Of a DNA stretch of 37,075 nucleotides, positions 1 through 37,075 are shown piece by piece (position 1 is the first letter of the stretch; each line of letters opens with the position of its first letter). The DNA lies in IMG/VR virus record IMGVR_UViG_3300036904_000092, positions 1 to 37,075 of that record; one strand, written 5' to 3'. The position numbers were made by a program, and so were the translations under genes. Origin of the DNA: a virus (taxonomy: Duplodnaviria > Caudoviricetes). The notes below the pieces were generated by a model. The model made no database searches, had not been told where the DNA came from, and worked only from the letters and a program-made list of their open reading frames with translations.

Positions 1-44
1 ATAGGCTCCCATGCTGGTTTAAGCGCTGTGCCATATCCTTCAAA
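1..44. repeat. Terminal overlap (copy 1), circular contig
   Basis: Bases 1-44 are identical to 37032-37075, and the methyltransferase ORF reads in frame across the join. Confidence 0.97.
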
Positions 45-386
45 GCCAAAGTTGTTGTGACTTTTCGGGAAACCTGATCCATATAACCACATCATGCAAT
101 CCCTAATCTCCCATCCCGCATCCTCAATGGCACACATAAGCCTATGATGCTTTCTAGTGCCTCCGAAAGCAGCTAACATGGATCCAGGTTTACATATCCT
201 CAAAGCCTCGGACCAAAACTCATTCCCGGGGATGCCATAATCCCAATGTTTTCCCATGAATCTCAAGCCGTAGGGTGGATCTGTCACGATGAAATCAATG
301 GAATTGACATCCATCTTTGCCATTTCTATGAGGCAATCGCCGTGAATTATCATTTCATATTCATCCAGTTCATTCGTCTCTTTCAT
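1..386 (-). CDS. DNA N6A/N4C methyltransferase (beta class), N-terminal part; continues across the origin
   Basis: Manual translation gives MKETNELDEYEMIIHGDCLIEMAKMDVNSIDFIVTDPPYG...LKPAWEP, with the DPPY catalytic motif. It is in frame with the 36392-37027 ORF. An alternative start lies at 353. Confidence 0.92.
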   Translation of the reverse strand, partial: MKETNELDEYEMIIHGDCLIEMAKMDVNSIDFIVTDPPYGLRFMGKHWDYGIPGNEFWSEALRICKPGSMLAAFGGTRKHHRLMCAIEDAGWEIRDCMMWLYGSGFPKSHNNFGFEGYGTALKPAWEP

Positions 387-5839: not shown

Positions 5840-6227
5840 TATGGGATATCATCCAGCTGATATATGGGAACAACAAGCAACTGATGAACGCGAGCAATAT
5901 TTACAGGACACTCTTGAAGAAGGACGTTTTCAAGATGCGAGGGAAGACACTCTTTACAAGTTTAGCGAGAACAACTCAAACGTGTCTAAAAAGGGCGTCG
6001 AAGCTTATGCAAAAATGTGGGCCACAGCTTATCTTGGTCCTGATAATGAAATAGGCAAAGAAGCAGACATATTAGCAACTGAGTTGGAACTTGACTTAGA
6101 GGATGCATACCTTATTCTTTGGAAGCGAGATGAATATCTCAACACCCTAAGCAATTACGAAAGAGATAAATTTTTAGACTTTTCAGCATATTTTAACGGA
6201 GATTATAACGGAGATGAAGATGAGTGA
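5808..6227 (+). CDS. Acidic hypothetical protein (true start probably the ATG at 5841)
   Basis: GGAG Shine-Dalgarno before MGYHPAD; GTGA coupling to the HNH gene. Confidence 0.7.
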   Translation: MSRKTTTTETNMGYHPADIWEQQATDEREQYLQDTLEEGRFQDAREDTLYKFSENNSNVSKKGVEAYAKMWATAYLGPDNEIGKEADILATELELDLEDAYLILWKRDEYLNTLSNYERDKFLDFSAYFNGDYNGDEDE

Positions 6228-6757
6228 TAAAAAAACATAGAAAACTAAAGAATGATCTTACAGGAAGAACACTCCATCACTGGAATGTTCTTCGGTATTT
6301 CGGTAACGAAACATATTTATGTAGATGTAAATGCGGAAAAGAAATGCCTGTAACTTCTGGATCATTAGGTAATGGAAGATCTAAATCTTGTGGGTGTTAT
6401 AAAAGCCCTCCTGATTATGAATATAATGAGAAAGTAAAAACTAGACTTTTGAAAAATTGCACTTTTATGCCTAGTGGTTGTTGGGATTGGATCGCGAATA
6501 TCGTCCCAAATGGATATGGACAAACAACCTATAGAAGAAAAACAGGACAAAGAGCTCATCGAATTTCTTGGCTTGTATGGAAAGGTAATATACCCGAAGG
6601 TCTATGGGTTTTGCATAAATGTGATAACCGAAAATGTATAAATCCTGAGCATCTATTCCTCGGGAACCACGAAGAAAACATGAAAGATATGAAACTTAAA
6701 AATCGCGCGTGTAAAGGTGAAAACTCTCACCTCCATGCTTCAAGGAGGAAAAAATGA
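6224..6757 (+). CDS. Free-standing HNH endonuclease (HNH_3-like)
   Basis: CRCKCG...SKSCGC N-terminal module and RAHRISW...VLHKCDNRKCINPEHLFLGNHEENMKD. Confidence 0.9.
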   Translation: MIKKHRKLKNDLTGRTLHHWNVLRYFGNETYLCRCKCGKEMPVTSGSLGNGRSKSCGCYKSPPDYEYNEKVKTRLLKNCTFMPSGCWDWIANIVPNGYGQTTYRRKTGQRAHRISWLVWKGNIPEGLWVLHKCDNRKCINPEHLFLGNHEENMKDMKLKNRACKGENSHLHASRRKK

Positions 6758-25787: not shown

Positions 25788-26381
25788 TCAAAAATTCAAA
25801 GGTATGAAGGCGTACTTCTTGTTGCTATTATCCACTTGGTGAATAGAACTTTTTGGTTTATTTGGGTCCATAATCTCATTAGATTGAATGAAATGAGGAG
25901 TGTAGTAGTAATCATTGATTTGATCTACAAAACCTCTAGGTAGAGTATAGACCTTGTTGTCTTCCAACTCATACCATTTCACTGGATCATCTTCATACTT
26001 CATATAAGTAAGTTTCACTGTTTGGCCAGGAACTCTTCGATTAATAAACTTACCTGTAATCTTTACGTTATCCAAAAGCTTTTGTTTTTCAATTTCTGCC
26101 AATCCTGCCGCTTTAGCGCTCGTTGCTGTCGTAGATCTATCCTGAGCTCTTAAGTCGTTAGCATCATGCTCTCGTCTAGGATTAATTAAAGCAGCTTGTT
26201 TCTTTCTTTCTTCAATATCTAATTTCGTAGCCTCTAATTCTACCCTAGCTTTATCAATCTCTTGCTGTAAGCTTTCCAGCTCTACTGTTTGCGTCATACA
26301 TACCTCGGTTTGTTCGTCTATACTCTTTTCTTTGGAATCTACAGTAATAAACTTTTTATGTCTTGCCATTTTTTTCTCCAT
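25788..26381 (-). CDS. Hypothetical head-module protein
   Basis: GGAG Shine-Dalgarno; coiled-coil N-terminal half. Confidence 0.7.
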   Translation of the reverse strand: MEKKMARHKKFITVDSKEKSIDEQTEVCMTQTVELESLQQEIDKARVELEATKLDIEERKKQAALINPRREHDANDLRAQDRSTTATSAKAAGLAEIEKQKLLDNVKITGKFINRRVPGQTVKLTYMKYEDDPVKWYELEDNKVYTLPRGFVDQINDYYYTPHFIQSNEIMDPNKPKSSIHQVDNSNKKYAFIPLNF

Positions 26382-26385
26382 TAAA

Positions 26386-26413
26386 GGGGAAAGGCTTTTT
26401 TATGCCCTTCCCC
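26386..26413 (-). terminator. Hairpin downstream of the capsid/decoration genes
   Basis: GGGGAAGGGC...GCCTTTCCCC followed by TTT on the minus strand. Confidence 0.55.
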
Positions 26414-26447
26414 AGCTTCCCATTTCTGACTATGGGAATTTATTTAC

Positions 26448-27578
26448 CTAGGGATAAGTCTGGCTCGAAGTTATTGCTTTCCACTGCCAAACGTCTGCCG
26501 TTCCGCCTATCAAACCGCCCGTTGTTGCAGAATTCGTTCCATCACCTGCACCGATCAAGATACCACGTGAACCAATGTTTTGCTTAGCAAAGCTAAGAAC
26601 GTCTTGGTTAGCGTAAGGCAAAGGTGCAGGAATAACATTAAATTGTTGGAAGTTATTAATGTTGCCCTCTCCTTGCGGTATCATCACAGGGAATGTAAAT
26701 GGATAACTTGCAGCCAAAGGCCAATGGGTAGGATTAGTACCCGAAGACGTATTAGTAGCAAATACACCAAAGTTAGTGCTGTCAACAGCCAGAGTGACAG
26801 TTTGTGTGCCCACAGCATTATTAGCAGCAATAACGGTAGCCTGGAATGGCAACCCGCTAATCGAGTTAGTAAGCTGAGGAACACCAAAAGCGGTTGGCAT
26901 TTCAAAAGTGACAACGTCCCCTACATAGTAGTTCTGTTGTACCAATAGTGTGACAACCATAGGATTAGCATTTGTAATTTTTGCGATAACCCTATTCTCT
27001 GGATAAACACCTGTAGAGTCAGCTACAAGGTAATTTCCAACCTTTTGAACGAATCCTACTGAAGTTGTAGCTCCAGTACTGTCCAGAAGAGTTGTAAATG
27101 TTGTAGTAGATCCTACAGTAATTACAGTCATTCGAAGTCCGCCAAATTGAGGCGAACTTGTCAAACCATAAACTCTGACGGTATCTCCCACTTGTAAACC
27201 GTGTGCAGTACCTGTTGTCCACACTGTCGTTGTACCTGGGGTAAACGAAGAAACGGCAACTGTGGCATATGCTGTCGGACTATAGCTGTTATATAGCGTA
27301 AATCCATTGATAGCTGCATATCCTGTATTCACAGGCGCAAGAATGCCCGAAACAGTACCGTTTTGCTTAATCAAAGCTGTTCCCGCTTTCATATATCTCG
27401 GGAAAAACTCTGCTTCAGTAATTCTGGTAGATGTTAAAGCACCTGCCGTACTTCCTGATGATACTCCATTCATTGTTAAATTCACTAAACGGAATTCATC
27501 AATTTGATTTGGAATAGGCAGGAAGAAAGGAGTCGAAGCTACGTTAACAAACGAGCCAGTTGTGATTTGTGTACTCAT
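26448..27578 (-). CDS. Capsid decoration or minor capsid protein with two FCCH-like domains
   Basis: Directly after the MCP, strong AGGAGGTG Shine-Dalgarno; contains TAHGLQVGDTV and ITNANPMVVT...YYVGDVV. Confidence 0.65.
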   Translation of the reverse strand: MSTQITTGSFVNVASTPFFLPIPNQIDEFRLVNLTMNGVSSGSTAGALTSTRITEAEFFPRYMKAGTALIKQNGTVSGILAPVNTGYAAINGFTLYNSYSPTAYATVAVSSFTPGTTTVWTTGTAHGLQVGDTVRVYGLTSSPQFGGLRMTVITVGSTTTFTTLLDSTGATTSVGFVQKVGNYLVADSTGVYPENRVIAKITNANPMVVTLLVQQNYYVGDVVTFEMPTAFGVPQLTNSISGLPFQATVIAANNAVGTQTVTLAVDSTNFGVFATNTSSGTNPTHWPLAASYPFTFPVMIPQGEGNINNFQQFNVIPAPLPYANQDVLSFAKQNIGSRGILIGAGDGTNSATTGGLIGGTADVWQWKAITSSQTYP

Positions 27579-27589
27579 AAGTCACCTCC

Positions 27590-28809
27590 TTATAGCGCTA
27601 CTTGCAATGTGCAGCGTAGATTAACGATCCACGACGTGTTAGTGATATTGAACACCTGAGCCATCTTCCAGCCTGCGGTCTGGTAGAGTCTCAAACGTGG
27701 CGACGCAATCTCTGGCGGCGCATAAATGAATTGGGCGCTATAGCCATCCAAATCCACCATGTCATAAGACTCCTGGCCTGGCAAGAAGACGTTATAAACG
27801 TCTGCGCCTAGAGCGGAAGCTGATGGGCTTACTGAACCTAATGAAGACAGGAGGAAACGGATGTTTCTTACTGTTCCCCATTCGGATTGCAAGAGGTTAG
27901 ATTGATTAGCGTAGTTAGCTACGTTAATGAATCCGACCATCTGATCCAAGTCAGCACTCAGGTTGGTATGACCCAAACCAAAGAATGCTGAACGGACTGG
28001 TGCAGTTCCGAATTTCAGTTCGCCTTCTATGATGTCCATGATGAATTGAGCGTTGGCAGTACGCAATAGACGTACAGCCTTAGAGCAATCCAAAGGACTG
28101 ATGTTAGTTGGGTTGTCCCCGTTTGTACCAGATGTACAATTAATCGGAGGTGCACCCCCCTCCATCATACTACGAGCCAATTGGTCTTCGGTTTCGCGAA
28201 GAGATTGGCCTAATGTTGACACTGCACTGTTGAGGACAGGGTCTTCGTTTATGAGCATGCAATTTGTTACTCTATGCTTTCACATAGGGTCTAATCATTT
28301 CTGTTAGACTCTGCAATTTCTTTTATATTTGCAGATCCGACTTTCGCTTCACCTTTCAGTGTCCACTCGCCTAAGTCTGTCACGCTGGCTTTACCCTTGC
28401 GCCTTGTTTGCCCGTCGGCAGTCCAAGTCAATCAGAGCGGATTTATAGCAGGCCATTTCTCAAAAACCTGCTCTTGCAATATTAGATAGGTGCCGTCATT
28501 TACCTATGCTGCAAGAAGATTGGCACGGTCATAAGTTGTTGATACTAACCAATCTACGCGCGCATCGATGTCAAGAGCCACCAGCTGTTGAGCGGCTGGG
28601 TCTACAATACCGTTGCCAAGAGGCACAGGTGCGGTTTCCAAGTTTTGGTATCTACGTCTACGTAGAATATCGCCAGCTTGCTGATCCATTGTGATCGGAT
28701 ATCCCATAGTTGTATGGATAAGATCGGGCATTGGACGCGCAAGTAGCTTCATACTCAGCTGTTGTTGCACAGCTGGTGGTAATATACTTGTGGTTGTTGG
28801 ACCTGACAT
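27590..28809 (-). CDS. Major capsid protein (N4-gp56-like), spliced from exons 28809-28548, 28496-28466 and 28259-27590; 320 aa
   Basis: The exons sum to 963 nt and give an open frame DIDARVDW|Y GTYLILQEQV|MLINEDPVL. Other motifs are RRRRY..L, YANQ...SEWGTVRNIRF and TAGWK; the gene follows the scaffold gene. Confidence 0.9.
28260..28465 (-). ncRNA. Compact group I intron (206 nt, no ORF)
   Basis: The 5' exon ends in U. P1 AGCAGGU/GCCUGCU with U.G; P10 AUG/CAU; P3 UCCGCUC/GAGUGGA; P4 CUUG/CAAG; P5 UGCC/GGCA; P7 GACU/AGUC; P8 CAC/GUG; three P9-region hairpins; terminal G. Confidence 0.9.
28497..28547 (-). ncRNA. 51-nt coreless group I-like mini-intron
   Basis: The exon ends in U and the element ends in G. 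The internal guide CCGU-G-CCAAUCU pairs with both exons. It contains an in-frame UAG, and its removal restores the Tyr codon U|AC. Confidence 0.75.
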
Positions 28810-28836
28810 TTATTTGTCTCCATGAAGAGACAAAGA

Positions 28837-29562
28837 TCACCTTTTTGCTGCTGAAGAAGTCTCTTTCCAAAGGGCCATTTTCTGCTCTTTGGTCATCTTA
28901 GAGTTGGACATCTGTGCCGCAGTCGTGACGGCTTCGGAGCGCACTCCAAGGCTTCCCGTCTTCGGCTTTCCTTCCTTCTCATCGACGCGCTTTTGTTCTT
29001 GAGAAACAGGTTTATCTTTAGCGGCAAGGTTGGCTTTATCAGCCTGGTATGCGGCGCTTTTTTTAATGAGATTATATACCTTTCTCAAAGGATTAGCGGC
29101 TTTTTCGACAGCTTCTCGGTTGTCTTCGTCACTTTTGATATATTTTTCAATATTCTCGGCAGTGACAACCTCGCCTAAGTCAGGAAATTCGGCTCTTGTT
29201 TCAAGAATTAGAAGCTTTTGATCTTTGTCGGCTAGTTTTTGCTCATAAGATGACATCTTCTTTGTCATCGAATTAAACGCTTTTACGAGTTTCTTTCCAT
29301 CGGGAAAGTCTTCGCTTTCTAGCTGTCTATAATCGAAATCTTCCTCTTCTGGCTGTGCTTGAGGATCAGTTCTTTGCTGCTGCTGTTGTTGCAACTGCTT
29401 TTCATAGAACTTTTTCTCTTGCTCAGCTTGCCATAACTGACGTTCGAGGTCTTCTTTTGCCTTTCGAAGCGTAGCAAAGTTTTCTTGCTGCGACTTCTTA
29501 TCATGGTTTTCTACAGCCTGGTCGGCGATTTCAGGGGTAATTACGCCATTCTCTGCTTCCAT
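28837..29562 (-). CDS. Capsid scaffolding protein
   Basis: Charged coiled-coil directly upstream of the MCP; AAGGA Shine-Dalgarno before the ATG at 29562. Confidence 0.75.
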   Translation of the reverse strand: MEAENGVITPEIADQAVENHDKKSQQENFATLRKAKEDLERQLWQAEQEKKFYEKQLQQQQQQRTDPQAQPEEEDFDYRQLESEDFPDGKKLVKAFNSMTKKMSSYEQKLADKDQKLLILETRAEFPDLGEVVTAENIEKYIKSDEDNREAVEKAANPLRKVYNLIKKSAAYQADKANLAAKDKPVSQEQKRVDEKEGKPKTGSLGVRSEAVTTAAQMSNSKMTKEQKMALWKETSSAAKR

Positions 29563-36239: not shown

Positions 36240-36395
36240 TTATTTCTTCAATCGCATTTCTTTAGTTACTTTCTCTATAAGCTCCTTAGCTTGCTTGTAC
36301 CCTATCTGCAACTTCCTCTGAAGAAACACAATGCTCAAAGATCCGTGCTTCTTCTTCAACTCTCTGGCTTTTCCGGATAGTTCGTCAGTGATCAT
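36240..36395 (-). CDS. Stand-alone FtsK gamma-domain-like winged-helix mini-protein (51 aa)
   Basis: Manual translation MITDELSGKARELKKKHGSLSIVFLQRKLQIGYKQAKELIEKVTKEMRLKK; ATGA coupling to the methyltransferase stop. Confidence 0.7.
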   Translation of the reverse strand: MITDELSGKARELKKKHGSLSIVFLQRKLQIGYKQAKELIEKVTKEMRLKK

Positions 36396-37031
36396 AAATA
36401 ACCTTCCAATCTTTTCACTGCAATTTCACAATACTCTTTCTCTAACTCTATTCCAATAGCCTTTACACCTAATTGCTTCGCTGCGATTAGGGTACTTCCA
36501 GACCCGGCGAAAGGATCAAGCAAAACAGGATTGCCTGGGGGTGCAAGAAGTTTGATTATATATTTCATTAAAGCTAATGGTTTGACTGTAGGGTGAAAGT
36601 TTTCGGATTTTGTAGAATTATCAGGTCTTAATGCATTAGTTGGGCCTTTTTTGGTATTACACACCTTTTCTCCATCTTTGGCACCTTTTTGCTTAAGTGG
36701 CATTCCCTTTAGTCCCTCATTACGCTCTTTGCTCGAAGCTTTGGCACAGTAAAAAAATCGACTTGCACTTATCCCACTCTGCCGATCTAGTTCCGCGGCC
36801 GCTTCTTCGTCTAAAATAAGATTTGCGTGCCATCGACCTAATATAGTTGTTCCAATTTGAAATGATCCTGATAAATTTTTTCCATAAGTATTGTTTCCTT
36901 CAAGGCGATCTGAATTTATTAAAGGACCTTCTTCTGATTCAATCCTCGAATCATCAATATTAATCCCAGCAACTCCCCACTTTTCGGCATTCTGCGCAAA
37001 AGTGCCATCTAGAGGTTTCATCGCCAATATA
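36392..37031 (-). CDS. DNA methyltransferase, C-terminal part (whole gene is 386-1 plus 37031-36392, 341 aa)
   Basis: HPTVKP, VLLDPFAGSGSTLIAA (motif I) and GIELEKEY. Confidence 0.93.
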
Positions 37032-37075
37032 ATAGGCTCCCATGCTGGTTTAAGCGCTGTGCCATATCCTTCAAA
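37032..37075. repeat. Terminal overlap (copy 2)
   Basis: Identical to bases 1-44. Confidence 0.97.

Follow-up and report, generated by a model that had tools for sequence, protein, structure and literature searches.

How does an intron that has no catalytic core leave the messenger RNA of an essential phage gene? The question is raised by a 51-nt insert in the major capsid gene of a virus (Caudoviricetes) whose complete record, 37,075 bp with direct terminal repeats, is called the window here, meaning the whole stretch of DNA that was analysed.

Layout of the capsid gene

Genes for a terminase, a P22-like portal and an N4-gp56-type major capsid protein were identified in the window, the capsid gene lying on the minus strand, to which the coordinates of its parts refer throughout. 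Exon 1 (28548..28809) holds codons 1-87 and one further base. It is followed by the 51-nt insert, designated M (28497..28547), by a middle exon of 31 nt encoding YGTYLILQEQV (28466..28496), by a complete, ORF-less group I intron of 206 nt, designated I2 (28260..28465), and by exon 3 with codons 98-320 (27590..28259; phrog_1357, major head protein). The middle exon is kept in spliced RNA contigs and agrees with intron-free homologues. Left unspliced, the capsid frame ends at a UAG (28504-28506) inside M; after removal of M and I2 it encodes 320 aa and matches homologues. The first-pass annotation, made from the letters alone, had named a spliced product of this size, which is reached when I2 is removed as well as M. 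Its description of M held, and left out I2, which lies 31 nt downstream, together with the clamp helix, the Ala-Ala-stop and the identity of the catalyst.

M is a spliced satellite intron without a core

The insert is preceded by a U and its last base is a G (28497), as had been claimed. An 8-bp P1 with a U.G pair at the cut forms between the final 8 nt of exon 1 (28548-28555) and positions 28517-28524 of the insert, with pair probabilities of 0.85-1.0, and a P10 of 4 bp is present between 28525-28528 and the first 4 nt of the next exon. The two insert strands form one internal guide (28517..28528), in which the P10 strand is followed directly by the P1 strand.

Database searches yielded 41 distinct mini-introns (minis) of 32-79 nt at two capsid sites, 30 of class 87, the window's included, and 11 of class 89. 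In all 30 class-87 minis a U is paired to G in P1 before the 5' site, the terminal base is a G, and four P10 positions are paired between guide and 3' exon. Covariation in P1 and P10, which the first-pass annotation had proposed to look for, was found at P10 position 2 (U-A in 11 and C-G in 19 of the 30, a compensatory change) and at P1 position 8 (paired in 25 of 30, with three pair types); P1 positions 1-7 are invariant, which says little because they were part of the search pattern for the pattern-found loci. At the protein level no gap had been expected at the splice point, and DWYGTY was continuous in all 10 close intron-free homologues listed (P0001-P0021), with no 17-aa insertion. Five more distant homologues have other sequence at this site and likewise carry no 17-aa insertion.

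The absence of a core was also upheld: a P7-type motif was found in 0 of 41 minis, and Rfam matched neither M nor I2. With P1 and P10 present, the core absent and the splice junction seen in RNA, M is a real, spliced, coreless satellite intron. Having no core, it is not a member of group I, yet it behaves like a group I substrate domain; it is therefore non-autonomous, as had been proposed. The likeness drawn earlier to very small fungal rDNA introns is a loose one, since retention of P7 and self-splicing are reported for those (PMC3160393, in excerpt).

Splicing products in metatranscriptomes

Parts of the stretch were present in four of seven peat metatranscriptome runs, of which X1 and X3 miss the junctions. 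The contigs carry no strand information, and each RNA form described here is one assembled contig at a depth of 2-5. Record 9 of run X2 (151 nt, depth 5.3) consists of 28615-28548, 28496-28466 and 28259-28208, with both introns out at the predicted bases. It contains no other letters in 151 nt, and the nearest of 45 intron-free alleles matches it at 119 of 151 positions. The contig skips exactly the 51 nt of M, and the junction whose detection in metatranscriptomes had been suggested is thus present; no letter lies between the flanks in one alignment, and a looser alignment gave 'between: not known'.

In record 14 of run X4 (254 nt at a depth of 2.1, with one other letter) I2 is gone and M is retained, and I2 removal was accordingly found in contigs from two runs, X2 and X4, of two studies. 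Record 10 of X2 (192 nt, depth 3) holds 167 nt of the 3' part of I2, whose G at 28260 is joined directly to the first 25 nt of M (28260 to 28547, no letter between), both ends being exact splice positions. The short side of this join, at 25 nt, falls under the 31-nt bridging rule and lies outside the joint table, and the join is a single-contig hint. As the full-length-circle side pathway gives the same join, it indicates that the terminal G of I2 reaches the 5' site of M, whether on the productive route or on that side pathway. No contig had M removed and I2 retained, and none had the 3' end of M joined to the 5' end of I2, both of which are uninformative at this depth. Among the pieces listed, long RNA pieces at 99% match or better were confined to 25866-29465 of the 20 kb examined, and transcripts therefore fit better than DNA.

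A complete group I intron accompanies the mini-introns

I2 has a P1 with U.G, formed by the final 6-7 nt of the middle exon (28466..28496) and a guide at 28448-28453, a 7-bp P3 (28435-28441/28362-28368), a bulged P7 (28374-28379/28338-28342) and a terminal G (28260), the features of a group I partner. Its boundaries (28465/28260) are one of four U/G-compatible pairs; they yield the 320-aa protein, and the RNA agrees. The core motif of I2 was the sole one found by a motif scan of the 37-kb genome. By motif script, P7 was paired at 4 of 4 positions in 35 of 41 partner introns and P3 was paired in 37 of 41, counts in which 4 partners were not parsed and 2 were mis-anchored.

A protein search with exon 3 collected 80 loci, 20 of which are interrupted, at the base where M sits, by inserts of 36-50 nt that share its helices. 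Both sites could be parsed in 66 of the 80: neither insert was present in 45, a mini and a site-98 intron in 20, and in one (L066) a full intron of 689 nt occupies the mini's site. A mini alone or a site-98 intron alone was seen in 0 of the 66. A mini pattern without a partner requirement gave 126 hits in three collections; 45 lay in capsid genes, and all 45, many of them duplicates across collections, had a downstream site-98 intron. A loose form of the pattern produced 120 chance hits in viral contigs and none in capsid genes. No mini without a complete downstream intron was found.

A search with a partner pattern listed 16 solo site-98 introns, all in divergent clades; the statement that a site-98 intron never occurs without a mini is true only in the close clade and was rejected. 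The same pattern uncovered the second class of mini, after codon 89, with a 26-nt exon. As this class came to light by way of its partner, its co-occurrence carries no independent weight.

A predicted clamp helix beside the partner's P1

Directly after the guide of M lies a strand, X (28509..28516), that is antisense to 28472-28479 of the middle exon. In class-87 minis X forms 8 bp with the exon bases just before the P1 of I2; each of the 8 positions is paired in 28-30 of 30, with compensatory changes at two, and P1 of M, X and P1 of I2 all occur in the minimum free energy (MFE) structure of 29 of 30. In the predicted structure X joins the two P1 helices with almost no linker in a three-helix junction, which would adjoin the strand entering the core of I2. 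A second antisense strand of M, Y (28502..28507), faces 28486-28491. Helix Y recurs as a run of 5-11 bp with covarying cores in 30 of 30 class-87 relatives and is predicted to hold the 3' splice site of M in a loop; in the window this register has a probability of 0.07, and a shifted register is preferred.

The duplex of mini and exon was more stable with its own exon (-15.6 kcal/mol) than with swapped exons (-11.2 kcal/mol), and 0 of 10000 permutations were as low, relatedness being uncorrected; the own exon was the best partner among all exons for 7 of 30 minis. Class-89 minis carry a clamp of 8-12 bp at the equivalent place. L516 and L518 combine a class-89 mini with a core intron that lies 96 nt downstream, site 98 being without an intron. 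Here the clamp pairs with the six bases before the P1 of that intron, with a compensatory change between the two loci, and the same three-helix junction is the MFE structure.

Despite an extra intron in L450, the mini continues to match the exon that adjoins the site-98 P1. There (oriented 1290-1700) the mini is followed by a full intron inside the middle exon and then by the site-98 intron, an order that implies three-step splicing. In L516 and L518 (880-1230 in each) the clamp overlaps the 96-nt middle exon, which folds into a hairpin domain of its own. A strand swap between the 3' end of M and the last hairpin of I2 was considered and dropped; the motif is the Ala-Ala-stop, and it is unmatched in other partners.

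The unspliced frame ends in Ala-Ala-stop

An in-frame Ala-Ala-stop (28504..28512) overlaps the clamp of M, and unspliced RNA of the window encodes a 101-aa fragment ending LLAA, an ssrA-like tail. Read in frame, 38 of 41 minis end in AA-stop and 3 in VA-stop, giving 41 of 41; other frames gave 0 of 82, and shuffles 631 of 20500 (3.1%). The ssrA signal that ClpX reads is a di-alanine at the terminus (PMC9601184, in excerpt), and by analogy the AA-tailed capsid fragment would be sent to Clp proteolysis.

The partners behind the minis have AA/VA-stop in 1 of 41 (0 of 17 in a separate locus count with three mis-parsed rows). It is present in 9 of 16 solo site-98 introns, three of these being near copies, and absent from 7. 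Full capsid introns past codon 36 (codons 78-215, except site 98) have it in 37 of 38, and those at codon 36, mostly with immediate stops, in 0 of 24. Fisher's test of the AA-tail contrast gave p of 1e-5, with relatedness ignored. That partners lack the tail suggests that ribosomes do not reach I2 and hence that M outlasts I2. This argument on order is indirect, because the solo site-98 introns belong to other clades and because 7 of 16 of them, the intron pair of L366 and 24 of 24 codon-36 introns also lack the tail. Among the full introns of L036-L080 (codons 78, 105, 118, 133, 145, 182 and 215) the Ala-Ala-stop is nearly always present, often in the P4-P5 region of the core. In L516, L518, L348, L370 and L379 the AA/VA-stop extends into the downstream exon, whose out-of-frame reading completes it.

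Which RNA removes M

The core of I2 very probably catalyses the excision of M. With somewhat less assurance, we favour an order in which I2 splices itself out and its terminal G then attacks the 5' splice site of M. The catalyst is the firmer of the two claims, since the engineered trans excision-splicing (TES) ribozymes do this chemistry but the circle pathway gives the same join; attack by a terminal G has in vitro precedent in the TES system (PMC2532722, in excerpt). Before M is excised, ribosomes would stop in M and add the ssrA-like Ala-Ala tail to the capsid fragment. I2 would self-splice and remain bound to the ligated exons through its guide. P1 of M would then dock, and the terminal G of I2 would cut at the 5' site of M, leaving I2 fused to M. 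Finally the terminal G of M would enter the G site, P10 of M would form, exon 1 would be ligated and a linear I2-M fusion released. A point against this course is that the released I2 could dissociate before attacking M. We lean slightly towards a wider scheme, a relay of one ribozyme and two introns in which the excised I2 is a single-turnover enzyme on M and leaves the fused I2-M; the satellites would be a mobile class in which splice guides, a retargetable docking clamp and a protein-destruction tag share one strand, and the host intron would carry the homing endonuclease for the satellite's site.

It is possible, if rather unlikely, that the I2 core removes M through the clamp before I2 itself leaves, or in no set order, using free GTP as the nucleophile, and that the I2-to-M join is a full-length-circle by-product that arises when the 3' splice site is hydrolysed. 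The covalent tether of the precursor would make docking simple, the circle pathway does yield an exact join of terminal G to first base (PMC6274462, in excerpt), and the clamp and co-occurrence data fit equally well. The sole partial product seen, however, lacks I2 and keeps M (X4 record 14), and removal of M first would expose I2 to ribosomes, yet the AA tail occurs in 1 of 41 partners whereas other downstream introns keep it. Removal of M in trans by a different ribozyme or by proteins of the host or phage, with a link to I2 through co-homing only, seems improbable: the 37-kb genome has one core motif, the clamp stops at the P1 of the partner and follows the partner's position, and the terminal G of I2 was found joined to M, although the endonuclease families in I2 track the mini's site and could by themselves explain the co-occurrence.

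We give next to no credence to M being a minimal self-splicing ribozyme in which exon sequence replaces the core, a claim made for the 67-nt PaSSU intron of fungi. For introns of the PaSSU type, pairing with the 3' exon and splicing in vitro have been reported (PMC3160393, in excerpt), and M pairs with its 3' exon too, but none of 41 minis has a P7-type motif, their lengths go down to 32-36 nt, and they were never found without a complete neighbour. It is just as hard to believe that M stays unspliced, with stop read-through or ribosome hopping, or with junction contigs that represent DNA of an intron-free strain or template switching. The length of 51 nt is a multiple of 3, DNA can occur in RNA libraries and the contigs are few; against this, the frame is disrupted by related minis of 40, 49 and 50 nt, homologues have no insertion, the junctions fall exactly after U and after G, the long RNA pieces listed match the window at 99% or better and are restricted to 25866-29465, and an allele with M and without I2 was never seen in DNA. 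The preferred reading remains that I2 acts first on itself and then on M.

Origin and spread of the pair

Full introns at the mini's position (L066, L513 and L514) consist of a short ORF ending in AA/VA-stop, then a guide, then a core, and in some minis the 5' part is laid out likewise but no core follows. M is probably what is left of the 5' end of a full intron that occupied its site. In L366 (oriented 1240-1560) complete introns at both codon 89 and site 98 flank a 26-nt exon; this is a candidate ancestral state, and neither of the two introns has an AA tail.

The pair of M and I2 is likely to spread together by homing. An antisense LAGLIDADG family of 19 members is common to solo and partner site-98 introns. 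A first sense family (11 members) was found solely in the partners of class-87 minis and the full introns of L066 and L513, the L066 protein being 86% identical to those of L002 and L062; a second (6 members) was confined to class-89 minis, both those with the core at site 98 and those with it 96 nt away. The sense families track the mini's site, and the mini may therefore protect its allele from the pair's own nuclease. Intron-free alleles showed no palindromic symmetry at the site of the mini (about 2.8 of 10 positions), which lends no support to the idea of an endonuclease target there. In a tree of the neighbouring gene with 60 rows, 17 changes were needed for the mini label, against a shuffled mean of 17.5, at least 15 being forced by strong branches; the label is scattered, as expected of a mobile or repeatedly lost element. 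The site-98 introns of L019, L023, L038, L049, L053, L055 and L069 are ORF-less or short-ORF partners, with unrelated inserts of 90-280 nt where others hold the endonuclease gene.

Comparison with known systems

The group III introns of Euglena are degenerate, non-autonomous remnants of self-splicing introns. Unlike M, they are derived from group II, use lariat chemistry and are presumed to depend on trans-acting factors. Degenerate introns of lichens are protein-dependent (bioRxiv 2021.05.01.442275, in excerpt). The TES ribozymes of the Testa laboratory come close in chemistry: a group I ribozyme without exons makes the first-step attack with its 3' terminal G and becomes covalently joined to the 3' part of the substrate, the kind of join at which the I2-to-M contig hints, after which the flanks are ligated. 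They are engineered, the reaction is described as non-native, and the ribozyme supplies the P1 and P10 guides (PMC2532722, in excerpt), whereas M brings its own guides and a clamp in a natural mRNA. A shortened Tetrahymena core without guides, acting on a substrate whose own strands make P1 and P10 (Sargueil and Tanner 1993, as cited in the excerpt of PMC2532722), resembles I2 in this respect but worked in vitro only, at 10-100 mM Mg and 55-65 C with exogenous G, and had no tether to a neighbouring intron. The group I spliceozyme uses one core to take a non-catalytic intron, up to 100 nt long, out of an mRNA, in E. coli as well, but it is engineered, acts in trans and recognises both sites through its own P1 and P9.2 (PMC4094466, in excerpt).

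Among natural introns, the PaSSU type of fungal SSU rDNA shares small size (56-81 nt), a putative P1 and P10 and pairing with the 3' exon. These introns differ in a reported P7, a pairing that the minis lack, in self-splicing, in their place in nuclear rRNA and in having no partner intron and no peptide tail (PMC3160393, in excerpt). Tandem group I introns around a very short exon are described for Twort orf142 (23-nt exon) and Coxiella 23S (34-nt exon), where one core can use the neighbour's splice site and skip the exon; both cores there are full and the cross-reaction drops the exon, whereas M is coreless and the exon is kept (PMC10136302, in excerpt). A natural coreless intron served by its neighbour was not found in the literature searched, which thinly covers subscription journals, and group I catalysis separated from the excised intron was described there only for engineered systems.

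The separation of a catalytic RNA from the intron that it removes is the central proposed step in the origin of the spliceosome. If the reading of M and I2 is true, they are a natural case of this separation, in an essential phage gene. The system, at about 330 nt, is small enough for one in vitro experiment and would offer a design rule for ribozyme-based RNA excision, namely guides borne by the substrate and a clamp beside the ribozyme's own P1. Minis are invisible to covariance-model searches, and the capsid genes that hold them appear broken.

Other features of the loci and of the window

A mini and its partner on a 2.7-kb contig (L504) of an uncultured Chlamydiae MAG are the only hint of a host; a search of this MAG with capsid exon 3 gave no match. 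Across L001-L080 the capsid gene has at least ten intron sites, with up to five inserts per gene; many of these inserts carry sense or antisense LAGLIDADG ORFs, and Rfam missed the one example scanned. In the window a free-standing HNH endonuclease gene lies in the early region (6224-6757, plus strand). A DNA methyltransferase-like ORF is found at both record ends (36392-37075 and 3-386, minus strand), with DPPY and DPFAGSG motifs identified by eye and a repeated 'GTALKPAWEP', consistent with a circularly opened genome.
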